Source: an uncultured bacterium (GTDB lineage Bacteria; Patescibacteriota; Minisyncoccia; Phycocordibacterales; UBA11359). Taken from it: 64,000 bases of DNA. Below are positions 2,754 to 57,144 of this stretch, in pieces (within the stretch, counting starts at the first letter, position 1; each line of letters opens with the position of its first letter). The position numbers and the translations under genes were made by a program. The notes under the pieces were generated by a model, which saw only the letters and a list, made by a program, of their open reading frames with translations, was not told the DNA's origin and ran no database searches. The stretch covers positions 162,474-226,473 of the forward strand of contig CAIKZC010000010.1 of the NCBI GenBank assembly GCA_903831815.1, read 5' to 3'.

Positions 2754-3449
2754 GTGGCCAATTCAACTCAAACGTTAGTAATATCCGATATTCATTTAGG
2801 TTCGACCCTATCTTCGGTAGAGGAATTGATGTCGCTTATCAGAAATACATCTTTTGAGCGCATTATTTTGCTTGGAGATATTTTTGACGGATCGCATATT
2901 CGCCGATTCAAAAAGATTGATTGGCAATTTTTATTGTATCTGCAAAGTCTTGGCAAAAGCGGCAAAGAGATTGTGTGGGTCATTGGCAATCACGATTTGG
3001 CCGCGATCAAAAATATAAAAAAGATCAAGGATATAAAATTCGTTGAGTCATATTATTGGCAATATCGAGGAAATAATTATTGTGCCATTCACGGTCACCA
3101 GTTCGATCATATGGCCATAAAAAATCCGGTGATAAAAAAGTTTACGGGTAACCTCCACTCTATCTTTGCCAGTTATATTCGTCATAAAAAGACTGCACTC
3201 TTTTTTGCCAAAGCTCATACCAAAGTTCGCCGACTTTCGCGCAAGATCGCCGATGGAGCTATCGATTATGCAGTCAAAAACAATATCAATTATATTTTTT
3301 GTGGTCACACACATATGCCTCTAAGTTGCAAAGTCGATCTCGCCGACAAAAAACAGATCAATTATTTTAATACCGGTTCATGGATTCAGAGACCATTTTC
3401 CTATGTGACGATCGACGAGGGAGGAGTAAAGATAAACGAGTTGGCTTAA
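2754..3449 (+). CDS. Calcineurin-like metallophosphoesterase family protein (GTG start)
   Basis: Motifs ISDIHLG, LGDIFDG, GNHD and GHQFDH are present, typical of metallophosphoesterases (LpxH-like fold). Confidence 0.7.
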   Translation: MANSTQTLVISDIHLGSTLSSVEELMSLIRNTSFERIILLGDIFDGSHIRRFKKIDWQFLLYLQSLGKSGKEIVWVIGNHDLAAIKNIKKIKDIKFVESYYWQYRGNNYCAIHGHQFDHMAIKNPVIKKFTGNLHSIFASYIRHKKTALFFAKAHTKVRRLSRKIADGAIDYAVKNNINYIFCGHTHMPLSCKVDLADKKQINYFNTGSWIQRPFSYVTIDEGGVKINELA

Positions 3450-3453
3450 AGTG

Positions 3454-3527
3454 TGGACGATACTGGATTCGAACCAGTGGCCTTACGAATGTGAATCGTA
3501 TGCTCTAACCAACTGAGCTAATCGTCC
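3454..3527 (-). tRNA. tRNA-Val (anticodon CAC), no encoded CCA
   Basis: The reverse complement folds as a cloverleaf: GGACGAU acceptor stem, D-arm GCUC-AGUUGGUUA-GAGC, anticodon loop UUCACAU, T-loop UUCGAAU, and 3' strand AUCGUCC + A. Confidence 0.85.
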
Positions 3528-3626
3528 TTATATATTGTAGTCCTTATTATTGAACACTTTTTCGGTCGTTGCAACATTTCTAAAAATGTGCGATACTCAT
3601 TTGTACGCGTTTTTGAAGTATATTTT

Positions 3627-3699
3627 GGGCCGGTAGCTCACCTGGTAGAGCACCTCATTTGCACTGAGGGGGTAGGGGGTTCGAGTCCTCTCCGGTCCA
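3627..3699 (+). tRNA. tRNA-Ala (anticodon UGC)
   Basis: GGGCCGG acceptor stem, D-arm GCUC-ACCUGGUA-GAGC, anticodon loop UUUGCAC, T-arm GGGGG-UUCGAGU-CCUCU, and 3' strand CCGGUCC + A. Confidence 0.85.
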
Positions 3700-3702
3700 C
3701 TA

Positions 3703-3731
3703 TTGACTTTTTTTAAATAATATAGTAATTT
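3703..3731 (+). promoter_or_regulatory. Putative sigma70-like promoter (TTGACT-N17-TAATTT) immediately after tRNA-Ala, driving the GC-rich ORF
   Basis: ttgacttttttta aataatatagtaattt; the -10 is weak. Confidence 0.3.
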
Positions 3732-3764
3732 AATGTTGTTAGGGTATGTTACCCTGATTGCTAT

Positions 3765-3824
3765 CCTGAAAGGTAAGCAAGTTCATTTCAAATGTTCCCT
3801 GAAAGGGGAACGCATCTGAAAGGA
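3765..3824 (+). repeat. Three direct copies of CTGAAAGG in the 5' leader of the 3832 ORF
   Basis: cctgaaaggt (3765), ccctgaaagggg (3797) and tctgaaaggatg (3816). The last overlaps the RBS AAAGGA. Confidence 0.5.
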
Positions 3825-3831
3825 TGTGTGT

Positions 3832-4557
3832 ATGCTCCGTGTAAATTATGTGTATGGCCTTATGTTTGAGTGGGGCAAGGAATGGAGTCACGGTCGCGAG
3901 CCAGATCGACTGAGGAAAATTTTCCACATGATGGTCGAAGGTCGTTCGTGCGCAGATCTCTTCAAGGCAGTTCTCGAAGATTTGGAGGGTAATGGGTTCG
4001 AACGTTTTAGTCCACTCCAGATCGGTGCAGTGATAGCCTCTGTTTTCATTCTGTTTCCGAATGACGAGACTGATCGTGCTCACTTTGGAAGGGAGCTCGA
4101 GGTAGCTATCACTACCTCTAGTGAATCCGAACCAATTGAGTTTTTTCAGGGTTGTGTGGTTGGTCTCTTTAAGGCGACGGTTACTCTGAGGGAACTGAAA
4201 GATTCCAGCGAGTTTCTGGAAACCAATTTGTGGAGACTTGCTCTTCTTGCTGCAGAAAAGGCTGATTTCCACAAGAGTCAGCCCCACAGCTTCAACCACG
4301 GCGGTATGCTATCGAATGTCATCGGAGATTACTTGCGGAGCGATGATGATGAGACGCGTTGGGAGTATTTGGAGAAAGCGCTCAGTTCTTTCGCCTTAAG
4401 TCTTCCCAAGAAGAAACGTCTGGTCGAGTCTTATTCTGCTCATGGCACAACACGCTTTCTTGTCGGCGAGATGACTTACAAAATCTTTGGTCGTCGGGCC
4501 GACGAAACTGCTAGGACGGCAATGGTCTGCGATTACTTGAAACATAGGAAGCCGTAG
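3832..4557 (+). CDS. Hypothetical protein (GC-rich, ~50% GC); alternative GTG start at 3826
   Basis: Long ORF with RBS AAAGGA 8 nt before the ATG and a terminator downstream. No recognisable domain. The antisense ORF 3739..4299 is shorter and lacks signals. Confidence 0.6.
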   Translation: MLRVNYVYGLMFEWGKEWSHGREPDRLRKIFHMMVEGRSCADLFKAVLEDLEGNGFERFSPLQIGAVIASVFILFPNDETDRAHFGRELEVAITTSSESEPIEFFQGCVVGLFKATVTLRELKDSSEFLETNLWRLALLAAEKADFHKSQPHSFNHGGMLSNVIGDYLRSDDDETRWEYLEKALSSFALSLPKKKRLVESYSAHGTTRFLVGEMTYKIFGRRADETARTAMVCDYLKHRKP

Positions 4558-4583
4558 GCAAGTCATCATTTCTGAACAACCAA

Positions 4584-4619
4584 CCCCGGGGTATCAATCA
4601 CCCCAGGGTTTTTCTTTTT
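4584..4619 (+). terminator. Rho-independent terminator (CCCCGGGG...CCCCAGGG hairpin + TTTTTCTTTTT)
   Basis: ccccggggtatcaatcaccccagggtttttcttttt. Confidence 0.65.
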
Positions 4620-4645
4620 AAAAATTTTTTTCAATTTAACAATAT

Positions 4646-4686
4646 CACCCACAAATTGTTTCCAAAATCCGATCGGGTAGTCCACA
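4646..4686 (+). repeat. Conserved box copy A: CACCCACAAATTGTTTCCAAAATCCGATCGGGTAGTCCAC (24-nt core identical to 8007-8030; contains CCGATCGG palindrome)
   Basis: Exact 24-mer gtttccaaaatccgatcgggtagt is shared with copy B. Both copies follow a GC hairpin terminator plus an AT-rich spacer and precede a gene. Confidence 0.7.
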
Positions 4687-4747
4687 AATAAAAAATGCCT
4701 TTTAAATAAGCTATAAAAACAGTTTTGTTTTTGATATACTTAAAAAC

Positions 4748-7345
4748 ATGGAGAAAATGGATAAAAGTGTTGAAAATCTAAGTGCACAGGTGGATGCTGT
4801 GTCTGAATATGCTGATCAAGAAATATCTCTACCTTCTCGTAAAGATGAATCATTAGCCATGTCTCTTGAGGAACTTAAGGCGAGATACCCTGTCCGCTAT
4901 GAGATGTATCTGAAAGTTTTAAGGGCACAACGTGGTGGAGAAATAACCGAAGAAGAAAAGGAAGATATGGTTGAAACTTTAAGAGCCTTAAATAATCTTG
5001 ATAAGTATATCGAACGACATAAAAGCAACAGTGGAGAGAGAGTTTTGAGAGATAAGCAATTCGATGTTTTTGAAGATATTAGAGATTTTTTGGAAAAAGG
5101 TGGAAAAGAGGGATACATAAAATTACCAACTGGTTCCGGTAAAACGGTGATATTCACGTTGCTTGCAGATGTGCTGGATATGAAAACACTAGTCGTTGTA
5201 CCAAAGAAAAATTTGGTTACCCAGACTAATGAACGAACTGAGCAATTTACTGGTAAGAAAGCTGGAGCGGTTTATCAAGATGAAAAAGTGTTTGATAAAC
5301 AACAGACTACCACCACTTATCAATCACTTGTTAGACAAATCGAAAGCGGCAACATGAAGCCAGAAGATTATAAACTTCTAATACTGGATGAAGCACATAA
5401 AGCTTTGGGTGATAAAAGTCTCGAAACAATTGAATTGTTTAATGATGCAATAAAGCTTGGCTTTACTGCCACACCTAAATATTCTGAGAATAGGAGTGTA
5501 TCCAATATGTTAGAAACTGAGATTCACAGCGTGACAGTAGTTGAAGCTGTAGAAGACGGCATGATTAGTCCATTTTCTGTGATTGTAGCCAAGACAAAAG
5601 TAGATATTAGCAGTGTTGAGGTGAATACTGTTGGTGAATATAGTCAGGCTGACCTTGAAAAGGCTGTCAACATTGCGAGCCGAAATAAAGCGGCAGTGGA
5701 TATTTATAAAAAAATGTTTAATGGTCAGCTCGCGCTCGCATATTGTTGTGGAGTTCAGCATGCCGCAGATGTTGCTAAAGAATTTAACGATGCGGGTATA
5801 CCAGCTATAATGATGAGTGGTGATCAGGATTTATCAGAAAAAGAAAAAAGCGATATTTTTGAAAAGTTTTCACGTGGTGAAATCAAGGTTATTACTAACG
5901 CCGATATTTTGATTGAGGGTTTTGACGAGAAAAGAGTTGGTCTCTGTTTGAATTTGCGACCGACTTTGTCACCGGTTGTTGCTGAACAGCGTGGTGGTAG
6001 AGTTTTGAGATTGAATAAGGAAGAAGACCCAAAAAAGCACGCCTACGTAATTGATTTTCTTGATGAAAATCAAAACAAAGATTTTCATCCTATTACGTTT
6101 GCGGAAATTGCTGGCGCATCGGTTGTATATGCAAAGACCCAAGATGGAAAAGATATTCCTGACAGAAATACGGAAAAAGCGGATGTAGCCAATATAAAAG
6201 TTGAAGGTCTAGAAATAGTTGTTGATTCCGAGGAAGTTATGCGCATGGTTAGAGAAATGGAGTCTCAAGCTGCCAAATTACCTCCCGAAAATTGGATCAA
6301 ATTAAATGATTTTATTGATAAAACCGCAGACACTTTTATTTTGCCGAAAGCAGAAGTGAGAAGAATGGTAGCAGAAAACAAACTTGATAAACCAGATAGT
6401 TTTGGAAGATTTAAAAGCGTTGATGGTTATTTGGGTCAATATATAAGTCCAGAACTTCAGAATGGGATTCTTGATGAATTAGGTAGTGGATTTAAAGGTC
6501 TACCCAAAGATTATCTTACTTTAGGAGCAATGAAGCACGAACTTCAATTGACGTGGACACCGACTTTTAAACGATTGTTTGAAAAAGCAAAGGAGTTGGT
6601 ACCCGATGGAGTTGTTAATCGCAGAGGTCAAGTTTATCTTAGCAAAAAATTCTTTGAAACACTCCGTGACTTGTCCAGTTCTGAAATTGCACCAGAGGAT
6701 TGGGTAACTGAAAGTGCTTTAAAAAAGATGGGTCATAACACAGCTCTTTCAGATTTATTAGATGACCTAAAAGAAGAAATGCCTGATGAAATTAAACAAC
6801 TTCGTGGAAAGAAACATGGACCTATTCCACATTATTCGCCGGCATTTGTGGCGGAATTTTATAAACGAGCAGAAGTTCTCAAACAAAACGAAGCAATTAG
6901 ATTGCAAAAGGAAAAGGAGTTGGAAGTGGCACCTAAAGATTGGTTGGATCTTAGTGATATTAGGATTGCAACAGGTCAGTCGGCAAAAGATCTGGAAGAT
7001 GCCTATAACAAATATGCTTCCGCTAATTCAAATGATAATCTGTTAGGACGACATCGTCCGAGTGCGGACAAAAAATATGAAAATTTCGTTGATCTAAGTG
7101 CTGTAGAAAGAGTTTTTGAGTCGATACTCAATAAAAAAACTTTATGGGAGAGATCCGTTGCACCTGAAGGTTGGTTGACTGCTCAGGCGATTGCGGATAG
7201 GAAGGGAATTTCACTTGAAGAAATTTATAAAAATGTAGTGGCTCTAAAACCTTCAGGAGATAAAATGATTAAGATTTACAAAGACAAGGACGGAAAGAAC
7301 AAATTCTTTTATCACCCTGATTTCGTAAAGAAGCTTATTCCGTAA
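4748..7345 (+). CDS. Superfamily-2 DEAH-box helicase (ResIII / type III restriction-res-like N-terminal ATPase + helicase C domain) with ~450-aa C-terminal extension of unknown function
   Basis: Walker A LPTGSGKT, motif II LILDEAH, motif III GFTATP, motif VI QRGGRVLR. No recognisable domains in residues ~430-865. Confidence 0.8.
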   Translation: MEKMDKSVENLSAQVDAVSEYADQEISLPSRKDESLAMSLEELKARYPVRYEMYLKVLRAQRGGEITEEEKEDMVETLRALNNLDKYIERHKSNSGERVLRDKQFDVFEDIRDFLEKGGKEGYIKLPTGSGKTVIFTLLADVLDMKTLVVVPKKNLVTQTNERTEQFTGKKAGAVYQDEKVFDKQQTTTTYQSLVRQIESGNMKPEDYKLLILDEAHKALGDKSLETIELFNDAIKLGFTATPKYSENRSVSNMLETEIHSVTVVEAVEDGMISPFSVIVAKTKVDISSVEVNTVGEYSQADLEKAVNIASRNKAAVDIYKKMFNGQLALAYCCGVQHAADVAKEFNDAGIPAIMMSGDQDLSEKEKSDIFEKFSRGEIKVITNADILIEGFDEKRVGLCLNLRPTLSPVVAEQRGGRVLRLNKEEDPKKHAYVIDFLDENQNKDFHPITFAEIAGASVVYAKTQDGKDIPDRNTEKADVANIKVEGLEIVVDSEEVMRMVREMESQAAKLPPENWIKLNDFIDKTADTFILPKAEVRRMVAENKLDKPDSFGRFKSVDGYLGQYISPELQNGILDELGSGFKGLPKDYLTLGAMKHELQLTWTPTFKRLFEKAKELVPDGVVNRRGQVYLSKKFFETLRDLSSSEIAPEDWVTESALKKMGHNTALSDLLDDLKEEMPDEIKQLRGKKHGPIPHYSPAFVAEFYKRAEVLKQNEAIRLQKEKELEVAPKDWLDLSDIRIATGQSAKDLEDAYNKYASANSNDNLLGRHRPSADKKYENFVDLSAVERVFESILNKKTLWERSVAPEGWLTAQAIADRKGISLEEIYKNVVALKPSGDKMIKIYKDKDGKNKFFYHPDFVKKLIP

Positions 7346-7424
7346 TTCTGGTAATTTCGAAATATCTGCAAAGCAAAATAAACGGCTAATTTAAGCTATA
7401 TTTTGATATTTTTAAAAAAATTGC

Positions 7425-7452
7425 TTGACAATTTCTGTGGATATGCTATGCT
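7425..7452 (+). promoter_or_regulatory. Putative sigma70-like promoter TTGACA-N16-TATGCT preceded by an A/T-rich UP-like tract
   Basis: tttaaaaaaattgcTTGACAatttctgtggatatgcTATGCT. Confidence 0.4.
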
Positions 7453-7457
7453 TATAT

Positions 7458-7714
7458 CAGCAAGTAAGGGTAAGACCAGCAGGAAGCGTTTGGCTTCCGG
7501 GTATTATTCAGAAGAGAGTGCGGGTTCCTCAGGTCAGCGGAACTGCCAGCACTATTGTTCCTTGAGGTTTGTAGTCTGACAAATCGCCCCTCATATGTTT
7601 CATTCGGAAGTTGCGATGGATTGATCATCGAATGAACGAGGTTTGGCGAGGATTGCGTTTGCGAATCCATGCCTACTGCAGAGTTGCTTGATTGTATGCA
7701 GTAGCAATCTTTTT
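7458..7714 (+). ncRNA. Candidate small structured RNA (~255 nt, ~48% GC) bounded by promoter and terminator; identity unknown
   Basis: No convincing ORF; only a 72-aa antisense ORF. Several internal hairpins, and the segment ends in the terminator at 7673-7714. SRP-like fragments (CAGGUCAGCGGAA) are present but do not match a known consensus. Confidence 0.3.
7673..7714 (+). terminator. Rho-independent terminator (8-bp stem CTACTGCA/TGCAGTAG, 16-nt loop, CAATCTTTTT)
   Basis: ctactgcagagttgcttgattgtatgcagtagcaatcttttt. Confidence 0.55.
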
Positions 7715-7886
7715 AAACGTTAGGTCCAATCTAGCAAAATTTCTCAGAACCACCACGATTTGGAGAACATCGTTGAATGGTTTGAGAGATCAGGACATTA
7801 TTGTCTGGTTTCCAAAATCTCTGTGGCCTGTGAGTCTTTGATCTTCAACTCACAAAAAACCACGATCTGATCGTATGAAGAATCAA

Positions 7887-7920
7887 CCCCCGGATACATC
7901 ACGTGCCGGGGATTTTCTTT
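7887..7920 (+). terminator. Rho-independent terminator (CCCCCGG...CCGGGG stem + ATTTTCTTT), structurally analogous to 4584-4619
   Basis: cccccggatacatcacgtgccggggattttcttt. Confidence 0.55.
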
Positions 7921-7990
7921 ATATAATTAAATTACTATACTGACGATATTTCCTGAAGATTAATTAGTCAAAATATTTCTTAAAGTTTCA

Positions 7991-8034
7991 CACTCCTCCA
8001 CAAACCGTTTCCAAAATCCGATCGGGTAGTTCAC
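7991..8034 (+). repeat. Conserved box copy B: CACTCCTCCACAAACCGTTTCCAAAATCCGATCGGGTAGTTCAC; abuts a TTGACA hexamer
   Basis: The 24-nt core (8007-8030) is identical to 4658-4681. A third partial copy GTTTCCAAAATC lies at 7808-7819. Confidence 0.7.
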
Positions 8035-8361
8035 TTGACACAACCACTGTGTATCGCAATGTAAATCAACCTCAGTAGATTCGTCTAAATACCGTGGTGA
8101 AATAATTAATCTAACCAGTATTATGAAGAATCTTAAACTATAGAGTTTAAGGATAAGAAAGATACTGGCGATGATTTTGGAGGAATAACGCTTATGTTGG
8201 CGGCAAGTATTTTACTTATCTATCTTTATTTCCAAGCAAAAAAGTTGATGCAAGAGAAATAAAATGCATTCTGCTACGGCTATCTAAGTTAGAAAGAAAG
8301 TACAAAGAAACAAAATTGTCAGATCGAAATCTGGCACATAAAATTTGAACTGGGGGAGATC

Positions 8362-9057
8362 ATGTCAGTAGCGGTGTCGATAGGTGATATAGAGTTGGAG
8401 ACTTCGTTCGGGTATCCGCTTGGATACGCAGTCAAACCAATGGAGGAACAGCTTTCGCTTCTGCGTCAACATCTCGGTTTGTCTTTTCAAGGTGATTTGG
8501 CCTCAATCACGAAAGACCGTTTTTTTTACCCCATCGAAGGCCCTTTCTTCGTTCCGAAGTGGCAGGCCGTCGGTGGAACTTATGAAAAAGCCTTCAGTAG
8601 GGTGCTCGACGCAATCGGTCGCCAGCGCTCATTTGTCAATAATTGTCCCTATTCTATGGGGCTCAATCATCTTCGCCTTACTAGGCGGGCAGTGGATTAT
8701 CATGAAATGCTTGCTCGGCGGTCGGGAGACAGCCATATTCTCGTGGTGCCGGCGCAGTTTGGTCAATATCATGCAGGTCACAGTGCGTCAGAAGCGAACC
8801 GGGTGATGCCTTTCAGAGAGTTCCCACTCGATCCATACTTAGCTGCGGTTATGCTTCTTACGCATCCGGAACGATTCAAAAACGAGGATGATCTGCGAGT
8901 TGATTGTCCCGGCTGCGAATATGATTATCCGGATGGGTCCGGGCCGTGGTCTGAAGTTCTCTGCTTTCTTAAGTTTGGCGATCAGCTTTGTCTCAGTCAT
9001 AGGTATAAAGACGATCCGCTAGGTTGCTTCGGGTCCGCTTCCGGTTTCATCGTGTAG
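8362..9057 (+). CDS. Hypothetical protein (GC-rich, ~52% GC)
   Basis: 231-aa ORF followed by the terminator at 9117-9158. No recognised domain. The alternative-frame ORF 8420..8806 is shorter. Confidence 0.55.
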   Translation: MSVAVSIGDIELETSFGYPLGYAVKPMEEQLSLLRQHLGLSFQGDLASITKDRFFYPIEGPFFVPKWQAVGGTYEKAFSRVLDAIGRQRSFVNNCPYSMGLNHLRLTRRAVDYHEMLARRSGDSHILVVPAQFGQYHAGHSASEANRVMPFREFPLDPYLAAVMLLTHPERFKNEDDLRVDCPGCEYDYPDGSGPWSEVLCFLKFGDQLCLSHRYKDDPLGCFGSASGFIV

Positions 9058-9116
9058 CAATCTTGGGTTTTGAACTGCCGAACATTTGTTGAATCGATCG
9101 GCAAGTTCCGCCCATC

Positions 9117-9158
9117 GCCGGCGCAGATCGCAGTGATGCGATTTGCTCCGGTTTTTTA
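9117..9158 (+). terminator. Rho-independent terminator (long imperfect GC hairpin + TTTTTT)
   Basis: gccggcgcagatcgcagtgatgcgatttgctccggtttttt. Confidence 0.6.
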
Positions 9159-9555
9159 TTGCAATATTTTTTTAGTCAAAACAAAAACCCTTTGCAGGGT
9201 TTCTGTTTGGAACAGATATATCATTGTGGGGTTACTAAAATAGTTAAAGTGGTGCTCTATTTTTATTCCAAGGAATAAATTAAGTTGAGCTCCTATTATT
9301 TTTCAAAAGTGACCCAGACATGCAATACTGTTGCCTGTGTTAAGTATACGGGCAGGTGCTTTAAATGTACCTTATCATTCTGGACAAGTTGTTTATAAAA
9401 AGTGTATGGATAAAATATTTGTTGAAATTTCCTTAAAACAAAGCATTTATATCGATATTTTTAAAATAAAAATTGTGTATAAATAAAATTAAATAAATTT
9501 GACAGTATTTTGGTTTGTAATATGCGGTGTTTGTTGACGGCTGAAACAAGTCAGA

Positions 9556-12984: not shown

Positions 12985-14019
12985 ATGAAAAATTCTCAAA
13001 GAAATTTTTTCATTGGCCTATCAATCGCTGTTTTGTTGTTGCTCGGTCGCTCACTCTATGTGCATTTCACTTTTAAAAGTGTCACGCCAATATCGCCAAC
13101 GATTTCTACTACCACTCCCATTCAAAATACTGTTTCGAGCACGACCCCCGTATCGAAACCTAAACCGGTTTCAGTCTCGGCACCATATCCTACGCCAACT
13201 TCAACTCCAAACACCTCTATACTTAAATGGGGGGCGTATGTTGGTGACGGGAACAACAATCTTGCCAGTTTAGAAAGTATGGTTGGCGCGAAAGCCAACA
13301 TTCAAGCCGATTTTGAAGGTTGGGATACACCTTTTCCTGCTTATTTTGCATCTACTGTCGGTCAGCGAGGTAAGACTCTGGTTGTATATTGGGAACCAAA
13401 TTTTGGTTACGATAAGATCAATGACGGTTCCCAGAATAATTACATCAAGCAATTTGCTGTCGGTGCCAAAGAATATGGATATCCGGTAATGCTTGCTCCA
13501 TTCGATGAATTCAATTTGAATGAAAGCGCTTGGGGTTATGGTATTAATGGAAATACTCCTACAAAGTTTCTGAATGCTTGGAAACGTGTTCATGATATTT
13601 TTGCAAAAGTTGGGGCGAATAATGTAAAATTCGTCTTAACTTACAACAATGTTTCGGTGCCAAATACCCCTGACAACAAATTTTCGGCATATTACCCGGG
13701 TTCCAAATATGTTGATTATGTCGGCGTCGACGGATTTAACTTTGGTAACCCATGGACCTCGTTTGCCCAAACTTTTGATTCTGCAATTGCGACTCTTAAC
13801 ACATTTAATAAGCCGATTTACATCATGTCGGTTGGTACTGTTCCTGGGACTCAAAAACCGGCCTGGATCAATGAAATGGGTACTCATATCAAGACCTATT
13901 CTAAAGTGGTAGGCTGGGTCTGGTTTAACTCAAATAATCAAGACAACGGTGCCAGTTTTGTAATATATTCGGATACACCTTCTCTTGAGTCATTTAGGGG
14001 ATTATTAAACAAAGATTAA
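12985..14019 (+). CDS. Secreted putative glycoside hydrolase (GH26-like clan GH-A TIM-barrel), N-terminal TM/signal + Pro/Thr-rich linker
   Basis: LAPFDEFNLNESAWGYG resembles the GH26 acid/base region (FxHExNGxW) and KPIYIMSVG aligns with the nucleophile strand, but no Glu is present there. Paralog of the 14231 gene. Confidence 0.5.
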   Translation: MKNSQRNFFIGLSIAVLLLLGRSLYVHFTFKSVTPISPTISTTTPIQNTVSSTTPVSKPKPVSVSAPYPTPTSTPNTSILKWGAYVGDGNNNLASLESMVGAKANIQADFEGWDTPFPAYFASTVGQRGKTLVVYWEPNFGYDKINDGSQNNYIKQFAVGAKEYGYPVMLAPFDEFNLNESAWGYGINGNTPTKFLNAWKRVHDIFAKVGANNVKFVLTYNNVSVPNTPDNKFSAYYPGSKYVDYVGVDGFNFGNPWTSFAQTFDSAIATLNTFNKPIYIMSVGTVPGTQKPAWINEMGTHIKTYSKVVGWVWFNSNNQDNGASFVIYSDTPSLESFRGLLNKD

Positions 14020-14230: not shown

Positions 14231-15772
14231 ATGAGTATTATAAATAGCATACGCCGCAAGAGCGCTGTTTTTCTTGTAATTTTTAGTTTATTATTCACGC
14301 CACTTCTCGCTGCTCAGCAGGTATCAGCAGCAAATTGGGGCTCAAATAGGAATGGAAGCAATAGAACTTGGTCAAATTGGGGATCAGGTCATTCAATTCC
14401 AACTCCGACACCTACACCAACTCCTACTCCGACCCCAACACCCACACCAACTCCTACTCCAACGCCGACACCTACACCTACACCAACTCCAACTCCTGTT
14501 CCAACACCGACACCTATTCCAACAACTTCTGGACATGGTTCGATAAGTGGAACGGTTTATAACGATCTAAATCGAAACAGTGTAAAAGATTCAAGTGATT
14601 TAACACTTTCAGGTTGGACAATAAATCTATATAGCGGAGCCGGATGGTCAGGTTCTACTAACAAGGCGCCTATAAAGACCAACGTCTCGGATGCCAATGG
14701 ATTATATTCATTCAACAATTTAACTGATGGTACTTATAGTATCGAAGAAGTAAATCAATCAAGTCTAACTCAATTTACTAACGATTTTAACTCAATTGTA
14801 ATTACTAATGGTGCAGCTGTAACGGGTAAGGATTTCGCGAACGTTGGTAACACTACCACTGTAACTCCAACTCCAATTACTACGCCTGCACCTACTCCCA
14901 CACCAACATCAACACCAACACCGACTCCAACTCCGGTCCCTAACCCGACCCCACTCCCAATTCCAAACCCTGTTCCGGTCACCAACGCTCTACAATGGGG
15001 TGCCTACGTCGGTGACACCAGTGGTGCTCTCTCGTCTTTTGAAACTATGGTCGGAGCTAAGACTAACATTCAAGCCGACTTCGAAGGCTGGGATGCAAGT
15101 TTCCCAAGTCAATTTTCTTCAACTGTCGGTCAGCAAGGTAAAACCCTAGTTATCTATTGGGAACCAAGTTTTGGTTTTGACACCATTAACAACGGTTCAC
15201 AAGATGCTTACATTAAGTCATTTGCTGCCGGTGCCAAAGCATATGGTTACCCAGTCTTACTCGCTCCATTTGATGAATTCAACTTGAATGAGTCTGCTTG
15301 GGGTTACGGACTTAATGGCAACACCGCTGCCAAGTTCGTGATTGCATGGAAACATATTCACGATCTATTCGTCGCTGCCGGTGCCAACAACGTTAAATTC
15401 GTCTTAACTTACAACAACGTCTCTGTACCAAGTTCTAGCGACAATAGTTTTGCCGCTTACTACCCAGGTGCTTCATACGTTGACTATGTCGGTGTCGACG
15501 GATTTAACTTCGGTAACCCATGGACCTCGTTTGCCGGAACCTTTGACTCAGCAATTGCCACTTTAAACACGTTCAACAAACCGATCTACATCATGTCAGT
15601 TGGTAGCGTGCCTGGTGCTCAAAAACCGGCCTGGATCAATGAAATGGGTACTCATATCAAGACTTACGCCAATGTGGTGGGCTGGGTATGGTTTAACTCA
15701 AATAGTGACCAAAATTGGCTCGTAAATACGGATACTGCGTCGCTTACAGCCTTCCAAAGTCTAGTTAAGTAA
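14231..15772 (+). CDS. Secreted putative glycoside hydrolase paralog with additional SdrD-B/Cna-B-like (carboxypeptidase-regulatory-like) domain and (TP)n linkers
   Basis: Signal peptide; (PT)n linker; SGHGSISGTVYNDLNRNSVKDSSDLTLSGWTINLY...NGLYSFNNLTDGTYSI is a Cna-B/SdrD-B-like fold. The C-terminal 260 aa is ~75% identical to the 12985 gene product, including a 44-nt identical DNA stretch. Confidence 0.55.
   Translation: MSIINSIRRKSAVFLVIFSLLFTPLLAAQQVSAANWGSNRNGSNRTWSNWGSGHSIPTPTPTPTPTPTPTPTPTPTPTPTPTPTPTPTPVPTPTPIPTTSGHGSISGTVYNDLNRNSVKDSSDLTLSGWTINLYSGAGWSGSTNKAPIKTNVSDANGLYSFNNLTDGTYSIEEVNQSSLTQFTNDFNSIVITNGAAVTGKDFANVGNTTTVTPTPITTPAPTPTPTSTPTPTPTPVPNPTPLPIPNPVPVTNALQWGAYVGDTSGALSSFETMVGAKTNIQADFEGWDASFPSQFSSTVGQQGKTLVIYWEPSFGFDTINNGSQDAYIKSFAAGAKAYGYPVLLAPFDEFNLNESAWGYGLNGNTAAKFVIAWKHIHDLFVAAGANNVKFVLTYNNVSVPSSSDNSFAAYYPGASYVDYVGVDGFNFGNPWTSFAGTFDSAIATLNTFNKPIYIMSVGSVPGAQKPAWINEMGTHIKTYANVVGWVWFNSNSDQNWLVNTDTASLTAFQSLVK
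14398..14523 (+). repeat. Coding low-complexity (ACN-CCN)n repeat encoding a (TP)n linker
   Basis: PTPTPTPTPTPTPTPTPTPTPTPTPTPTPVPTPTPIP; not a CRISPR array (no spacers, coding frame maintained). Confidence 0.8.
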
Positions 15773-27232: not shown

Positions 27233-30200
27233 ATGTTCGTACGTTTTTTTCATATTTCTAAACCTGTTTTAATTTCAGTTTCTCTTTTTTTAATTTGCAT
27301 TTTACCTTTGAAATCTTTGGCTGACGATAACATTGTCGTCACGGATGTTTCCACTTCAATTTCAGATACGTCATTAATTTCCGATATTGTTGAATCGGAG
27401 TCTATTTCGGATGTAGTCACTCCTACAACAATCGATACTAATCCTGCCGAAATTTCTACCTCTACTTCTACGGATACGGATACGGAAAATGATATTGCAA
27501 CTTCAACAGCGACTTCAGTAACTTCATCAGAAAATTCTTCGACGACAACTGAGGCGACTTCGACCGATAGTAATGTTGTTGTTTCAACTTCAACTCCAAA
27601 CATTTCCGAGCAATTAACCAGTACCGGAAAATTGGTGACGGTTTCGGCGACTGATGAACAGGAAGCGATCACACCGATGATTAACGTTCCGGTCCGTGTG
27701 GCAATTTCGGAAATTTTTAAAGTTGGTCAGGAAAATAAAATAAAAATTAAATGGCAAAACAATGACGGTCAGGATATGCAGTTTACGGCAATTGATGAAG
27801 ATGGAAATGGTTACATTGATCATGTTGAATGGATCGTGCCGCACCTCTCGACTCAAACTTTTGATTTGATTTATATTTCCGATGCCTTGTTGTTGGACAC
27901 AAATAAAAATCCGATCGAAGATATTTTTGATATTGTCGGAACTCAAGATCAAAATTATAAAACCATAAATGACGGACAATATGTTCGAATGACGTTTGAG
28001 ACAAAATTGAATAATACAAGATACATTTCGGTTTTTGGAAAACCTCATGACGCCAGTCAGTCAAGTTCGATTGAAGTTTATCCTGTTTACACTGATGCCC
28101 AAGGAAATACGACTGAAGGCAATCCAATTCAAACGACTTTTCAAATCGATCATGATGGTGAGTATCAAATCTATTTGACCGATCTTCAAACACCAACCGA
28201 CGTTTTTGATCTGAGAGCTGTGGGGAATATAGATATTGATTACATTGTTGACACAATAGGACCACCATTAAACGCTTTTTGGGTCGGTGGCACAGGTCGC
28301 TGGTATGCCGACGCTGCTGCTCACTGGGCAACGTCAACTAACGGTCTAACTAGTGCCGGCAACTTACCTGGTCCGAATACTAACGTGACTTTTGATTCTA
28401 ACTCAGGATCTGCATCATCCGTTGTAACAATAGATGCAACAACTTCTCCAATCAACATAACCTCGTTGACTATCAGTACTTACACCGGAACTATTACTCA
28501 AAGTGCAAGTCTTATTATATCCGGAAGTTATTCTCAAGCTTCGGCTGCCACATTTACTTCGCCCAATCCGGCCTCGAGCACACTTTCAGTCGGTGGTAAC
28601 TTTTCGGTTACGGCCGGGACATTTAGACGTTATACGGGAATGGGCATAACTACCGATCCCTTTGTAATTTATGATGTGTATGGTTTGCAGGGCATGAAAA
28701 CCGGTCTCTCCAACTCTTACAAACTTTATGGTGATATTGACGCAACTAATACCGCCTTATGGAATACTATAGGAAGTACAACGACAGGTTTCGTACCGGT
28801 TGGCACAAACACTACCAGCTTTAATGGAAATTTTGATGGTGCCGGTTACACGATCAGAAATTTGTATATCAATTCTACAACGACAAACTATGTCGGTCTT
28901 TTTGGTTATGCAACAAGTACAATTCAAAACGTAAATCTTTCAAATATTTCAATTACGGCGACAAGCACTTTTGGTACTATCGGTGGAAATGGAAATCCTG
29001 GTAATGCGAGCACAAGCCCGACTGCTGGAGGTACAGGTTCGGTTGGTGGAGTTGGAGCCAACTTATATATAGGAGGTTTGGTTGGTTTTGGTGCAGGTTT
29101 TATTTCCAATGTTAATGTATCAGGAATAATTTCAGGCTTTGGCGGAGCTGGAGGTAAAGCTGGTGATGGAGGTAAAGGAGGAAACACTACATCCGGTGCT
29201 ACGACGGCGGGTGCTGGAGGAGCTACTGTCAGTGACGCCGTTGCTATTGGGGGCACGGTTTATATTGGAGGACTAGTTGGATATTATCAGGTTGGAGATA
29301 TCACTAATGCTAACAGTACTGTGTCGGTTATTGGCATCGGTGGTGCGGGCGGAGCGGGAGGTAAAAGTGGAGATGGTGGAACCAACTTAGGAACAGGTAT
29401 TGGTGGAGCCGGAGGAGCGACTGTTGGAGTCGCCGGCGCCGGCGGAGCCATATATGCCGGAGGATTGGCAGGTTGGGTTAATGCAGGTTCGATTATTACT
29501 TCTTCGGCGACAGGTAATGTGACGGCGACGGGCGGTGTGGGTGGCACAGCGGGAGGAGCGGGAGTTGGCGGAGCGGGAGGTGGCGCGGCTATCGGTGGCA
29601 ACGGAGGAGCCGGTGGCACTGGAGGGGCTGGCGGAGCGAGCTATGCTGGTGGTCTCGTTGGATACAATTTTGGAAATATTGAAGATGGATCATTTGCTAC
29701 AGGTATTGTGCAATCTTATGGTGGCATCTCCGGTGCCGGAACAATAGGTGGCTATGGTGGTGCGAGCGCTACTTCAACTTCAGGTACGGCTGCAAGTGGC
29801 GGTAACGGAGGCACCGGTGGTGCGGGGGCTATTGCTTATGCCGGAGGCTTGGTTGGTCAAAATGCTGTCGGCGGAATTATCACCGGTTCGACAAGTCCAA
29901 TTTATGCTACAGGAACAACTACCGCTGTCGGGTCGGCCGGTAAGGATGGACAAAACGGTGGAGCTGGAGGTGACGGTTCAAAAGGTACTGCTCATACTGG
30001 GGGTCTTGGAGGTAACGGAGTTGCCGGATCTATTGGTGGTGGTGCTTATGCCGGGGGACTTGTTGGACTTAACTCAGGAATTATTATTTCTTCAAATTCA
30101 AATACCGGATTGGTTACTGTAACTGGCGGCGCTGGTGGTGCCGGCGGTACTGGTGGCTCAGGAGGTTTAAAAGGAACAAGTGGGACGAGTGGAACAGGCG

Positions 30201-33200
30201 GTACAACAGGAAACGGTGGTTCAGCCAACTCTACTTCGGCATATGGAGGAGGATTAGTTGGAAGTAACACAGGAATTATTCAAAATTCATCGGCTCAAAA
30301 TTCAGTATCTGGTCTTGGAGGTTCAGGCGGAAAAGGAGGCGATGGTGTCGCTGCATTAACAGGATTTGCCGGTGGTGTCGGTGCCACAGGTGGTGCGGGA
30401 GGTATTCTATATATAGGAGGCATAGCCGGAGGTAATACATATTTAATTAGTAGTAGTTCGTATCTTAATGGAAGTGTTTCCGGTACGGCTGGTGCGGGAG
30501 GATCTGCCGGAGTTGGTGGTGCCGGTGGAAACTGGGCAGGTGGATTGGCAGGTACAGCCGGCACGGCTACGGTCGGAGCGGCTATTTATGCCGGAGGAGC
30601 AATTGGTCGTAATGATTATTTAGTTATTTCTAATGTTTATGCAACAGGGAATGTTGCAGGTACATCCGGTGCTGGTGGTGCCGGAGCAAAAGGTGGCGAC
30701 GGCGGCACAAGTCTAAATGGTGTCGTCGGAAGTGCCGGAGCTTCCGGAGGTGTTTCATATATCGGAGGACTCATCGGATATCACAACAACGGAGAAATTC
30801 TAAATTCATGGGCGACCGGAAGTGTTATTGCTAATGTCGGAGTTGCAGGCAATGGTGGCGGTGGCGGTAATGGTGGTACTGGAGCTGCGTCAACTGTTGG
30901 TGGCATCGGTAACACAGCCGGTAACGGCGGTGCGGGTGGCAACGCTTTCGGTGGCGGTCTTGTTGGCGTGACCAACTTAGGTACAATTACAAATTCTTAC
31001 GCGACGGGAAGTACCACGGTGACCGCCGGCGCTGGTGGCGTTGGTGGACTTGGAGGCACTGGTGGCGCCGGCGGTTCAAACGCAATCGGTGGTGCCGGTG
31101 GTGCCGGAGGTGCCGGTGGCACAGGTGGAGCCGCTTATGCCGGTGGACTTGTCGGACAAAATAATGCAATCATTCAATCAAATTCATGGGCTAGTGGAAG
31201 CGCGACCTCAACCGGAGGAATTGCCGGGGATGCCGGCGCCGGCGGCGCCGGCGGAACCACCACCGCTAGTACTGTCAACTCAGGTGTTGCCGCTGCGGGA
31301 GCGTCTGGTGGAACGGGTGGTACCGGTGGAGCCGCTTATGCCGGAGGATTGGTAGGAAATAACACAAATACGATAACTGATTCATATGCTATCGGAGGAA
31401 TTATAGTAGCCATTTCAACGCCGGGTAAAAACGGTGGATTATCCGGAGTGGCGGGAAACGGTTCGGCTGGAGGGTCGAGTCATACTGGCGCGGTTGGTGC
31501 TACTGGTGCCGCTGGTGGCGGCGGTGCTCTCGCTTATGCCGGAGGATTAGTAGGACAAAATTCATCAACGATTACAAATTCGCATTCCGACCAAGGCATA
31601 GCGAAAGCTACCGGAAATGCTGCGGGTAACGGCGCTGATGGCGGAGCTGGCGGTGTTGGCGGAACGGGCGGAAACGGAGGTGTCGGTGGAGTTGGTGGTA
31701 TCGGCGGAGCTGCCGTTTCAATCTTTGCCGGGGGACTTGTTGGGTATAACGTAGCTGGAATTATTCAATCTAATTCACATTCGTCTGACGACGCTATAGT
31801 TGTTGGACAAGGTGCCGGTAATGCCGGTAACGGCGGTGCCGGCGGTACTGCGGCAGCTGGAGGAGTCGGCGGCTTTTATTCTGCCGGTGGTCCCGGCGGT
31901 GCCGGAGGTTTGGTTGGAAGCAATACAGGAATTATTGATAGTTCATACGCAACCGGGAATTCAACTTCTACGGGAGGTCTAGGTAGTTCATATGGTACAG
32001 GCGGTAATGGAGGTAGTGGATCTACTGGCGCAACCGGTGGAACATTTACGCTTACCAGTAGTCCTGCTCGAACCGGTGGTTATGCTGCTGTTGGTGGCTT
32101 AGTAGGTTTAAATAATGCAAACGGCGCTATTCAGGGTATTTGTTATGCAAATGGAAATGCTGTGGGAATTGGAGGCAATGGCGGATTTGCAAGCAGTTCA
32201 CCAAATGGTGGTAACTCAACTGGTGCAGTTGCCGGCGCTGCGGGCATTGCTGGTGGTGCTGGAGGTGCCGGAGGAGGTGCTTATGCGGGAGGATTAGTGG
32301 GATACAACTTATCTGTTATAAGTACCAGTTCTTATGCGACAGGAAATGCGTCTTCAACTGGCGGTACTGGTGGCGCCGGCGGCAACGGTGGAAATGGTGG
32401 CTATGGCGGATCAGCTGGGGTGGCTGGTGTAAATGCCGGTAACGGTGGCGCTGGCGGAACAGCTTATTCCGGAGGAATTATAGGATTGAATGGAACTATC
32501 GGATCCTCGGTCATAACTAACGAGGGTACTATTGGTAATGCAAATTCAACTGGCATTATTACTGCTTATGGCGGGACCGGAAATACCGGTGGCTCTGGCG
32601 GCAATGGTGGCAATGCTACAAGTACAGCTGCATATATTGGGGGTGGCGGAGGTACCGGAGGTACCGGTGGCGCCGGTGGCACAAGTGCAGTTGGTGGTGC
32701 TGCTGGGTATAGTGTTGGTTATGTTAAAGATATTTCATACACAGTTTTGGGTTCAAATTTAAATTCTTTGGGTGGAGCAGCAGGCAATGGTGGAGGCGGT
32801 GGTTACGCTGGAGCCAGCGGAAACATATCAGCCGGTGTTGGTGCTACTGCCGGTAACGGCGGTATTGGTGGCGCTGGCGGAAATACGTTGCTAGGTGGAC
32901 TAGTAGGATATAATGATGGATATATAATCAATTCTAATATTCATATAAATGGAAATCTTTCGGCAAGTGGCAGAATTGGAGGTAACGGTGGCACCGGAGG
33001 TAACGGTGGAGATGCAACCAACGGTGTTGGAGGACATAGTGGTGGAGTCGCAGGTACGGGAGGCACCGGAGGCGCTGGCGGTACTGTCGGTATAGGAGGA
33101 CTTGTTGGACTAGCTAATGGAATTATTACAAATTCTCATAGCGATGGAGACATGATCGTTGTTTTAGCTGGCGGTAACGGAGGAATTGGCGGTAACGGAG

Positions 33201-36200
33201 GAATAGGTGGACTTTCAAGTACTACTATGGCCACTGCCAAAAACGGCACCGGTGGTGCAGGAGGTACAGGAGGAGCGGCCGGGTACGTTTATGCTGGAGG
33301 TCTTATCGGATACAATAATACTGCTGACACGTATTTTGATAATATTTATTCTAATAATAATGTTATTGCCAATGGAGGAGTTGGAGGCAACGGCGGATCT
33401 GCGGCAACTAGTACAGTTGGTGCTAACGGCAACACCGGAGGTGCAGGTGGAATTCCAAACTATCTCAGTGCTGGTGGTCTTATTGGAAGCATTACAGCAG
33501 CAGGGCTTTCTTTGACGAATTCTTATGCAACTGGAAACGTAAACGCCACGGCCTTTGCCGGAGGACAGGGTATTATCGGTAGTATCGGAGGGAATGGCAC
33601 GACAACTATGCTTGGCGGCGGCGGAGGAATTGGTGGTGCTGGCGGTACTGGTGGAGGAGTTATGGGCGGAGGTCTAGTTGGTTATATTTCTGGTGGTATG
33701 GTTTATATCGGCACTTCTACTTATGCCACCGGTGATGTAAATATTACTGCGGGAGCTGCTGGTGCCGGCGGTCAAGGTGGTGATGGAGGAGTTGGGAACG
33801 GAGCGCCTGGCGGATTGGGAGGTACAGGTGGCGCTGGAGGTACGGGTGGCGCTGCATACGGTGGTGGACTTATAGGATATATTACTTCAGGAGAAGTTAT
33901 TGGTGCGCATGCCAACGGTAATGTTGTTGCAAATGGAAATAGGGGGGGTGACAGCGGTAACGGTGGTAAAGGTGGTGATGGAGGGGTTGGAACTGTCGGT
34001 GGAGTTGGTGGTACCGGAACAGTTGGAGCAACTGGAGGTGCGGCTTATGCTGGGGGACTTGTGGGTACAAATGCAGGAGCCACAATTCAAAATTCATATT
34101 GTATTACCGGTTTAGTTACCGGAATCGGAGGTAATGCTGGTAATGGCGGTATCGGAGGTAATGCCGGTGTAACCGGAAATCTTACAGCTTCTACCACAGC
34201 CGCCGGTGGTGTCGGTGGAAACGGTGGTGTTGGTGGAGGTACTGGCGTAGGTGGATTGGTCGGATATAATACTTCAGTTAAAGCGATCATAAATAATTCT
34301 TATGCTACAGTAAATGCAACGACAACTGGTGGAACTGGCGGGACTGGTGGCGCCGGAGGTAATGGAGGTGACGGATCAGCTAACGGTAGTACTGCTCTGA
34401 CTGGCGGAGTTGGAGGAGTTGGAGGAAACGGAGGTGCCGGTGGCGGCGCCGGTGGTAACGCAGTTCAGATTGGTGGTCTTGTGGGACTCAATACTTTAGG
34501 AACTATTAATAATTCTTTTGCTCAATTTGGAACGATGACTGCTTTTGGAGGACTCGGCGGTACCTCTACCATTGGAGGTTTTGGTGGAGTCGGAACAACC
34601 ACTGGTTTGAATGGAATTGCTGGTATCGGAGGTACTGGTGGCGCCGGCGGTGCTATTTATGCTGGAGGTTTAGTTGGTTACACTACCGGTGTTGTTCAAA
34701 ATTCATTTTCTAAAACAACTTTAAATATTACAGGTGGATCCGGCCGAGACGGAACAGTTGGTCGTGATGGAGTTGCAAACAGAGGATCGGCTGGTTCCGG
34801 TGGCGGCGCCGGTGGAGCATCAGGTCTAATTTATGCAGGAGGTCTCGTAGGCTTCACTACATCTGATATTATTTCTTCATATGCAAGTTACGATTCTGGT
34901 TCCGGGGCGGGAAATATTAGTGTGACGGGAGGAACTCCTGGAAACGGAGCGAAAGGCGGTGATGGAGGGTTAGGACTTACAAATGGTGGACCTGGTGGCA
35001 ATGGTGCCGTTGCAGGTGGTGGTAAAGGCGGTGATGCCGGAGGAGCTTTTGTTGGTGGACTTTTAGGATATTCTTCAGCTGCAGGAATTGTTTCTTCTTC
35101 ATCGGCAGACACAATTACAATTTTGGGAAATGAACAAAAAGGCGGAAAGGGAGGTGATGGAGGAAAAGGTGGAAATGGCACCGTGAACTTTATTGGTGGT
35201 TTAGGTGGAATTGCCGGAGCTGGTGGAGCTGGTGGAATTCGCGGATATGGAGGGCTTGTCGGTGACAACTTGGGAGTTATACAAAATTCATCTTCTTCAA
35301 TTAGTATTTTACTTTATGGAGGAAACGGTGGTGATGGTGGCATAGGCGGCGCCGGCGGTGCTTCGGGACCGACGACGTCCTCTTCGACAGCCGCAACTGG
35401 TGGAGCGGGTGGAGCTGGCGGCGCCGGTGCTGCTACTTACGGCGGAGGTTTGATTGGCCGTACAGCCGGGACTTTTCAAATAAGTGATTCGTTTGCTTTG
35501 GGTGATGTAAATATTTTTGGTGGTACAGGTGGAGTTGGTGGCACCGGCGGTGATGGCGGTGACGGTTCAACCGGAACCAGTACCCATGTTGGATCGGTTG
35601 GAGCTTTGGGTGGCGCGGCCGGAGTTGGTGGTGCAGCTTATTCCGGAGGCTTGGTTGGATTTAATAACTCTTCAACAGGTGTCGCAAACTTTTTTAATGA
35701 TTTTGCCATAGGTGATGCTTTTGCAACTGGAGGTAACGCTGGAAGCGCTGGAACTTCCGGTAAAGGTGGTGCTTCAAGAATTACTCAAAACGGCGGCGCC
35801 GGTGGTGGTGCTGTTACTGCTGTGGCTGGCGGAGCCGCATACGCCGGTGGTTTGATTGGATACAACTTAATCACTACCGGTATCAGCGATATTTTAAATT
35901 CATACGCGGCGGGTATAGCTAGCTCGACTGGAGGAATAGGAAGTCTCGGAAGTAATGGTGGTAATGGAACAAGTGCGGTTGCCACTTCAACTGGAGGTGT
36001 CGGTGGCGCCGGAGGTGCAGGAGGAGCGGGAGGCGCTGGCGGTGAAGCTGATGCCGGAGGTTTGGTTGGATACAGCAGTGTTACTACGGGAGGAAATAAT
36101 TATTTCAACACATATTCTACAAGCATAATTGTATCTGCTTTGGGCGGTAAAAGCGGTAACGGCGGAAGTGCCGGAAGATCTGGTACTGGTGGAGTGGGCG

Positions 36201-56990: not shown

Positions 56991-57040
56991 ACGTGACACA
57001 CCCCAATCTTCCAGGGATATAATTTGGATGAAATACAATG

Positions 57041-57075
57041 GCCCGGACTCACTGAGAGTTCGGGCTTCTCTTTTT
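57041..57075 (+). terminator. Rho-independent terminator (GCCCGGACTC/GAGTTCGGGC stem + TTCTCTTTTT)
   Basis: gcccggactcactgagagttcgggcttctcttttt. Confidence 0.7.
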
Positions 57076-57144
57076 ATATATTTTTTATACACACATTTAT
57101 ATTACGGTTGGGTTGTAAGTTGTGACATATGATAGTATTAATTT

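Follow-up and report, generated by a model that had tools for sequence, protein, structure and literature searches.

The 5.8 kb that follow the tRNA-Ala gene in the 64-kb stretch of DNA analysed here (the window) appear to be a lineage-specific patchwork of separately terminated units and not one system, a reading to which we assign a probability of about 60%. The units would be a rare protein encoded by the first open reading frame (ORF1), a superfamily 2 (SF2) helicase found throughout the lineage, a stranded target of a diversity-generating retroelement (DGR) encoded by ORF3, and a duplicated module consisting of a terminator and a short sequence box. All three ORFs lie on the plus strand and a gap of approximately 1 kb precedes ORF3 (Table 1). 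The gene content of the window and all of its protein relatives point to the Patescibacteria, in the Paceibacteria/Parcubacteria area. A preliminary description of this DNA had read the region as a possible island, and possibly a defence island, adjoining tRNA-Val and tRNA-Ala; both tRNA genes are present where it had placed them.

ORF3 belongs to a family of DGR target proteins

The gene product of ORF3 does not exhibit a match to any entry in Pfam, NCBIfam, PADLOC or PHROG. Homology searches identified 22 relatives with 31-44% identity, most of which are about 290 aa long and feature an additional N-terminal segment of about 65 aa that is missing from ORF3; the identity to those proteins that have a demonstrated TR/VR pair (see below) is 28-44%. 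The loci of six relatives were read, four of them on IMG/VR contigs (L102-L105) and two on metagenome contigs (L110 and L111). In 6/6, a second copy of the final 126-141 nt of the gene is located 0.4-1.4 kb away, and the mismatches between this template repeat (TR) and the variable region (VR) at the end of the gene fall almost entirely on TR adenines (L102, 21/21; L103, 24/24; L104, 22/24; L105, 16/19; L110, 27/29; L111, 13/13). A reverse transcriptase (RT) of the RVT_1/phrog_1423 type and a bAvd gene adjoin the targets of these relatives. Adenine-restricted mismatches together with an RT and bAvd constitute the defining signature of a DGR, and the ORF3 family is therefore a family of DGR variable proteins.

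The viral copies of the family are located between TerL and the portal or capsid genes, with TerS also encoded in the surroundings, while the L111 copy belongs to a cellular genome and lies between thrS and dnaE. Within the DGR lineage of these six relatives, an avd gene of 114-117 aa is always found antisense to both the TR and the RT and between the two, an arrangement that marks this lineage when it is set against known DGRs. In a further relative, L101, neither an RT nor a TR is found within 8 kb, and orphan copies of the family thus occur elsewhere too.

ORF3 aligns with the family over its full length, including the VR. When compared with the TR of L110, it differs at 64% of the A positions and at 36% of the non-A positions (p = 0.003), and the differences from the other five TRs are likewise enriched at TR adenines (p = 0.004-0.04). 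The relatives also share a CTTGA-rich element and a terminator following the VR, and a diverged version of this arrangement is found after ORF3 at 9077-9152. By these alignments, ORF3 is shown to carry an equivalent of the VR of its family. In having such a region at its C-terminus, followed by a hairpin and terminator, ORF3 resembles other DGR targets, including those of candidate phyla radiation (CPR) bacteria and phages (PMC8144416; PMC6328139). It differs from them in that the 64 kb contain neither a TR nor an Avd or RT gene, that the N-terminal segment of about 65 aa is absent and that the population shows no variation. No sequence similarity was found to the solved variable proteins of DGRs, namely Mtd of the Bordetella phage, TvpA of Treponema and TaqVP of Thermus.

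The genes of the family have a guanine-cytosine (GC) content of 54-61% on contigs of 37-50% GC (L101-L105, L110 and L111), and the high GC content of ORF3 is therefore inherited with its family and is no sign of recent transfer. Of the mobile pedigree proposed earlier for this region, the part that stands is the phage-linked kinship of ORF3; the use of its GC-richness as an indication of transfer does not, as this is a trait of the family.

No TR corresponding to positions 8800-9054 was identified on either strand of the window, where the best match at non-A positions reached 0.5, and the window contains no DNA resembling the TRs of the family. RT and Avd genes were not detected in the window by tblastn with five RTs and two Avds, by a hidden Markov model (HMM) of the Avd of this lineage, or by Pfam searches of ORFs of at least 110 aa. 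The sequence of ORF3 is static as well. Its 90% identity cluster has a single member, though the gene is present on 11-13 contigs from several samples, and no variant of the protein was found in a collection of 15 billion proteins. Across all of the contigs read, the VR contains zero single-nucleotide polymorphisms (SNPs), and no hypervariation of the VR was seen. More generally, many short contigs, assembled from the metagenomes of several samples, carry the sequence of the window with essentially no SNPs, and the population is therefore clonal. Given the DGR signature in the relatives, the lack of TR, RT and Avd in the window and the static sequence, ORF3 is therefore considered an orphan DGR target and probably a relic.

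In the relatives, the RT together with Avd would copy the TR into the last ~130 nt of the target gene and randomise the positions templated by adenine, and such mutagenesis would diversify a ligand-binding C-terminus. The window appears to retain only the target and the hairpin and terminator downstream of it. With the N-terminal ~65 aa lost and its sequence fixed in the population, ORF3 would at most be a binder of fixed specificity. The non-coding gap of about 1 kb preceding ORF3 sits where L110 carries Avd, TR and RT, and this equal position suggests the decay of a DGR cassette; the gap may otherwise be a 3' untranslated region (UTR) of the helicase or a small RNA (sRNA).

The helicase, ORF1 and the duplicated module

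The DEAH-box helicase named in the preliminary description was recovered with its Walker A and DEAH motifs and its ResIII/DEAD/Helicase_C domains. Its C-terminal half, which had been listed as 450 aa of no recognisable kind, resolves into five degenerate repeats of about 70 aa. Their common opening motif is phi-P-[EK]-[DG]-W-phi, and pairwise z-scores between them go up to 5.5. Homologues of the helicase contain 0-7 of these repeats with a period of about 68 aa, the number of repeats following the length of the protein. In several homologues the repeats score as winged helix-turn-helix (HTH) domains, namely HTH_29 (to E = 5e-16), HTH_28, HTH_23 and HTH_17.

More than 385 homologues of the full protein were found, the top 120 at E < 1e-125, and they belong to Pacebacteria, Daviesbacteria, Levybacteria, Magasanikbacteria and unclassified Patescibacteria. 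Of the two closest full-length homologues, one is encoded beside secE-nusG-rplK and the other beside S1/gyrA. The helicase thus belongs to a Patescibacteria-wide SF2 family; it appears to be part of the conserved gene set, and not the accessory gene it had been taken for, and is predicted to be a DNA-binding translocase with a housekeeping-type role. The profile scores of its core exhibit a weak likeness to RadD, XPB and type IV restriction helicases. It shares with the RadD/XPB-type SF2 helicases the ResIII/DEAD/Helicase_C core, Walker A and DEAH, and scores far below the NCBIfam equivalog cut-offs for both (RadD, 90.9 bits against 720; XPB, 45.5 against 610). A stronger match was obtained between the core and the phage replication-module family phrog_16 (E = 5e-72). 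The individual phage helicases are 24-31% identical over the core only; the matches examined extend to residue ~540, and none of them scored for the winged-HTH-like repeats of ~68 aa. Unlike RadD/XPB and the phrog_16 kin, the family of the window helicase is spread across the Patescibacteria.

The product of ORF1 is a real but rare protein family. Only ORF1 itself was returned by a word-indexed search of 5.8 billion clusters, and seven remote homologues with 26-41% identity were found among 1.84 billion representatives. There was no match in Pfam, NCBIfam, PADLOC or PHROG. The homologues are on tiny contigs or could not be located, and their genomic context was not recovered. The AlphaFold2 (AF2) model of the protein is a bundle or repeat of 11 helices with a predicted local distance difference test (pLDDT) score of 85, and its structural matches, which are weak, are to helical repeats of the MIF4G/HEAT-like type.

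The sharp alternation in GC content that had been reported for this region is present, with 48.3% for ORF1, 37.6% for the helicase, 44.2% for the stretch 7425-7920 and 50.4% for ORF3. The window as a whole has a GC content of 42.7% and its genes 41.7 +/- 4.6%, and two further genes reach 54%. The swings are real but inside the genome's own range and not extreme. The two further ORFs of 54% GC, at 1323-1658 and 56139-56990, have no Pfam match, and the second is overlapped by an antisense ORF of 295 aa (56205-57092). Neither the ORF at 1323-1658 nor the one at 56139-56990 is related to the ORF3 family; the second was considered as ORF3 kin, together with its antisense ORF, and rejected.

Two copies of a module composed of a terminator, an AT-rich spacer and a box with a 24-nt core had been described around the helicase block, and both were found, the cores being exact at 4658-4681 and 8007-8030. 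Each box lies 40-90 nt past a hairpin with a T-run, and the two upstream terminators look homologous by eye. Beyond the core, the boxes share 92% identity over 37 nt and 77% over 65 nt. With up to 3 mismatches allowed, the 24-nt box has only two copies in 64 kb, where none would be expected by chance. Its presence at many promoters across the genome had been named in advance as an observation that would refute the reading of the region as a composite accessory one, and these two copies are the only ones in the window. The box core is at no constant distance from any -10/-35 match visible in the sequence, and searches of JGI metagenomes and IMG/VR gave no match to the box. The two cores have stayed identical although spacer and terminators have diverged, a pattern suggestive of selection acting on the core or of gene conversion; we infer that the element is most likely a site of protein binding or of recombination. 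The possibility that the box is a coding remnant, on either strand, was rejected, as the likenesses to Avd motifs are not significant and cross low-complexity, AT-rich DNA. An integron-like attC reading was rejected as well, given that there is no integrase and that no complementary core sites are seen by eye.

Weighing other readings of the region

Several observations weigh against a patchwork with a stranded DGR target. The contig L020, which covers window positions 3474-4638, has a heavily diverged tRNA-Val/tRNA-Ala spacer with indels (3528-3626, 99 nt) and is 100% identical from tRNA-Ala to 4638. The contigs L011 and L013 match the window exactly as far as 9309, after which they run into a tmk gene that the window does not have. 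With these three contigs in mind, the segment may still move or recombine. The predicted fold of ORF3 (AF2 model with pLDDT 85 and a predicted template modelling score, pTM, of 0.86) has no significant neighbour in the PDB or BFVD, and its matches to C-type lectins, whose fold would be expected for the VR-bearing domain, and to TvpA are weak. The role of the helicase is predicted from its domains. Remnants of an RT, Avd or TR in the gap before ORF3 are unproven: of tblastn, the lineage Avd HMM and Pfam bAvd, only a pairwise comparison gave a weak Avd match (E 0.003-0.013, for a search space of only 0.6-2.6 kb), and with the lineage HMM the gap reached E = 2.8 at rank 5, which is noise. The searches for DGR components cover 64 kb, and a DGR elsewhere in the genome could still act on ORF3. 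Lastly, the observed invariance is biased, as an exact match to the protein was used to collect the ORF3 contigs; the single-member 90% cluster partly offsets this bias.

The gene order around the region was compared across the loci of 80 relatives (L021-L080 among them), the nearest of which have a Ddl protein at most 57% identical to that of the window. The uvrC-ddl pair is kept in about 40 relatives and tRNA-Ala(tgc) directly follows ddl in about 30. None of the 80 relatives compared has anything of what lies between the metallophosphoesterase gene (2754-3449) and the SRPBCC gene. In six relatives, ychF, leuS and their neighbours are found within 3-5 kb of ddl, and the window homologues of these genes are at 45-55 kb (ychF-leuS at 45-52 kb). 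Relative to the distant genomes compared, the span from 3.7 to 45 kb is lineage-specific as judged from gene order. It holds the genes for G6PD, 6-phosphogluconolactonase and GpsA, as well as a gene for a protein of 5,194 aa. A 42-kb island over this span was ruled out because it carries housekeeping genes, and the synteny gap is a rearrangement at family depth and no evidence for a discrete island. The check on contiguity from uvrC-ddl onward thus found the uvrC-ddl-tRNA-Ala anchor conserved, and with Ddl identities of at most 57% it does not show the region to be absent from close relatives. This block is conserved across Paceibacteria-like genomes. Many of the contigs of L021-L080 stop within a few hundred bases past uvrC-ddl-tRNA-Ala, which suggests a recurrent assembly break or a variable zone.

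The alternative that survives best, though we consider it unlikely, is that 3.7-9.3 kb in its entirety represents a single mobile island or prophage that inserted next to tRNA-Ala, degenerated and has since lost its integrase. The conserved uvrC-ddl-tRNA-Ala block with nothing downstream of it common to the 80 relatives would fit such a history, as would the kin of ORF3 in phage head modules, the phrog_16 match of the helicase core, the divergence of L020 up to tRNA-Ala and the alternative right junction of L011 and L013. A perfect 14-nt inverted repeat (3721-3734 / 7926-7939; TATAGTAATTTAAT / ATTAAATTACTATA) after tRNA-Ala and after the second terminator could be added to this list; a repeat of this length is borderline in AT-rich DNA. 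Against this, no integrase, transposase or RT was found among ORFs of at least 110 aa across the 64 kb, the preliminary description having noted the lack of integrase and transposase in the region itself. There is also no tRNA-derived direct repeat, since no 12-mer of 3627-3740 recurs in direct orientation and the last 25 nt of the tRNA have no approximate copy even with up to 6 substitutions allowed. The helicase is Patescibacteria-wide and occurs in core contexts, and its resemblance to phage helicases is low and confined to the core. The relatives are distant, and the synteny gap is really one of 3.7-45 kb that includes housekeeping genes such as those for G6PD and GpsA.

The odd contigs could be assembly chimeras, as L005, in which KdpD is fused to the helicase, clearly is. 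L017 and L018 leave the window at ~6713 into an ArsA-like gene, and L006 and L009 do so at ~7012 into sequence of no recognised kind. Apart from L005, the odd contigs may reflect true structural variation, or else faults of assembly where the sequence is conserved or AT-rich. The junction of L011 and L013 is located inside the 500-nt gap after ORF3 (9058-9555), which has a GC content of 34% and a further hairpin at 9176-9212. The tmk gene into which these contigs run was considered as an ancestral neighbour and rejected, as it is found neither near ddl in the relatives nor anywhere in the window. The region resembles tRNA-linked genomic islands in its position downstream of a tRNA, its mixed composition, its genes of no recognised function and a content that varies between lineages. 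It differs from them in lacking an integrase, a direct repeat derived from the tRNA and a demonstrable empty site, and one of its genes is lineage-wide. The proposal of a coherent island is accordingly not upheld, and a patchwork remains the preferred reading.

Somewhat less probable still is that 7425-7920 encodes a genuine small or long non-coding RNA, possibly acting with the helicase, and that the 24-nt box is an operator or binding site for the HTH array of the helicase. The promoter and the two terminators that had been described in this stretch correspond to a good promoter-like match (7425-7452) and to two hairpins with a T-run (7670-7706; 7888-7911). No ORF of at least 60 aa was found on the plus strand of 7425-7920, and the kilobase that contains it (7346-8361) is the longest gap between the listed ORFs (at least 110 aa) in the window. 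The identity of the box cores between diverged flanks and the half-box inside the stretch would also fit an RNA with an associated binding site. Sites resembling promoters and terminators are, on the other hand, no commoner here than in shuffled sequence, and the folding of 7453-7920 is no better than that of shuffles (z -1.5), with sliding windows on both strands unremarkable save for the terminator (z of -4). A search of 7346-8361 against Rfam, both at the gathering thresholds and at E up to 5, gave only chance-level matches and no known non-coding RNA family. Six-frame translations of the gap have no Pfam match, and no similar DNA was found in the other loci, GenBank phages, JGI metagenomes, IMG/VR or elsewhere in the window. 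No terminator lies between the helicase stop codon and 7670, and read-through from the helicase is therefore plausible, which would make the stretch a plain 3' UTR. In other genomes, no comparable gap follows the helicase homologues, and the box is absent from the JGI metagenome and IMG/VR searches. For 7425-7920, a 3' UTR, an sRNA and decayed DNA are all conceivable. The putative short ORF (MLAASILLIYLYFQAKKLMQEK) that separates box B from ORF3 has a hydrophobic part followed by a basic part, as in small membrane peptides.

It is doubtful that a DGR outside the window still acts on ORF3 as a remote target. In favour of this, the reading frame is intact and features a ribosome-binding site, an end resembling a VR and the post-VR hairpin and terminator, and DGRs are common in CPR bacteria, where remote targets are known (PMC8144416). 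An active target would be difficult to reconcile with the complete lack of ORF3 variants among 15 billion proteins despite the 11-13 contigs from several samples. ORF3 has also diverged from the TRs of its family at non-adenine positions. An orphan target is thus preferred.

We regard it as improbable that the terminator-spacer-box modules are the boundaries of exchangeable cassettes in an integrase-less, non-integron system. In such a system the HTH array of the helicase would read the 24-nt box, the gap would encode an RNA partner, and the junctions at tRNA-Ala and 9309 would be traces of movement. A defence island of the helicase, effectors of no recognised kind and an RNA is very improbable, for the weak PADLOC matches of the helicase to type IV restriction and PbeA models span the generic SF2 core alone, ORF1 and ORF3 have no PADLOC match, the helicase family occurs throughout the Patescibacteria, ORF3 encodes a DGR target and not an effector, and the Mrr-like and Cas4-like genes that might be cited in its favour are ~50 kb away. 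The first of these two genes encodes a protein with an ATP-cone and an Mrr-type endonuclease (57617-58483), and the second encodes a Cas4-like PD-(D/E)XK nuclease (59048-59887).

Features of the window and significance

Table 1. Features of the region downstream of tRNA-Ala, with their coordinates in the window.
Feature	Position	Strand	Basis or remark
tRNA-Val (cac)	3453-3527	-	ARAGORN; Rfam 73.6 bits
tRNA-Ala (tgc)	3627-3700	+	ARAGORN, Rfam; closes conserved uvrC-ddl-tRNA-Ala block
ORF1, 241 aa, rare all-alpha (11-helix) protein, 48.3% GC	3832-4557	+	AF2 model, homology searches
ORF1 terminator hairpin, then TTTTTCTTTTT; first module copy	4582-4610	+	-15.7 kcal/mol, z -2.75
Box A, 37 nt; exact 24-nt core 4658-4681 with palindrome CCGATCGG	4649-4685	+	63 nt before helicase ATG
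SF2 DEAH helicase, 865 aa	4748-7345	+	Pfam domains, homologues
Helicase N-terminal part	~100 aa	+	Domain layout
Helicase ATPase core	residues ~100-441, nt 5045-6070	+	Walker A (PTGSGKT), DEAH; ResIII/DEAD/Helicase_C
Five degenerate PxxW repeats of 63-80 aa	residues ~511-865, nt 6278-7342	+	Correspond to winged-HTH repeats of homologues
Sigma-70-like promoter match, TTGACA-16-TATGCT, TG-extended	7425-7452	+	Consensus match only
Non-coding stretch, 44% GC; candidate sRNA or helicase 3' UTR	7453-7920	+	No ORF, fold z -1.5
Internal hairpin with T-run	7670-7715 (hairpin 7670-7706)	+	Folding
Half-box GTTTCCAAAATC, 12 nt	7808-7819	+	Inside non-coding stretch
Terminator hairpin, then ATTTTCTTT; second module copy	7888-7911	+	-14.8 kcal/mol, z -3.2
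Box B; exact 24-nt core 8007-8030	7998-8034	+	Repeat search
22-codon ORF (MLAASILLIYLYFQAKKLMQEK), GGAGG 7 nt upstream	8194-8262	+	Read from sequence
ORF3, 231 aa, DGR variable-protein family member, 50.4% GC	8362-9057	+	Homologues, TR/VR loci
VR-equivalent part of ORF3	8915-9054	+	Alignment to six VR/TR pairs; L110 TR match E 1e-5
Post-VR hairpin and terminator	9077-9111 (hairpin), 9117-9152 (terminator, GTGA loop, T-run)	+	z -4.2
Junction where L011 and L013 leave the window into the tmk gene	9309-9310	.	Two contigs, two samples, two assemblies

Two further features were observed in the remainder of the window. The protein of 5,194 aa is encoded by a single ORF at 27233-42817, and the part of it between 29 and 38 kb has a GC content of 50-57% and a GC skew of about +0.3, unlike the rest of the window. 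A direct repeat of 668 nt with 78% identity (13269-13936 / 15037-15704) lies inside two neighbouring GH26-like genes (12985-14019 and 14231-15772), which are tandem paralogues.

A false lead has been removed, in that this locus is not a defence island and not an intact mobile element either. The analysis also describes a helicase that is Patescibacteria-wide and has an array of HTH repeats of variable number, and its function merits testing. A protein family for which Pfam, PHROG and NCBIfam hold no model has been assigned to the DGR targets, within a lineage characterised by an antisense avd. High GC content is intrinsic to this family, and GC content alone is consequently no proof of recent transfer. 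As a probable relic, ORF3 would be a clean example of a DGR target that became fixed after the loss of its mutagenic machinery, and it bears on the domestication of hypervariable binders in the tiny genomes of CPR bacteria.

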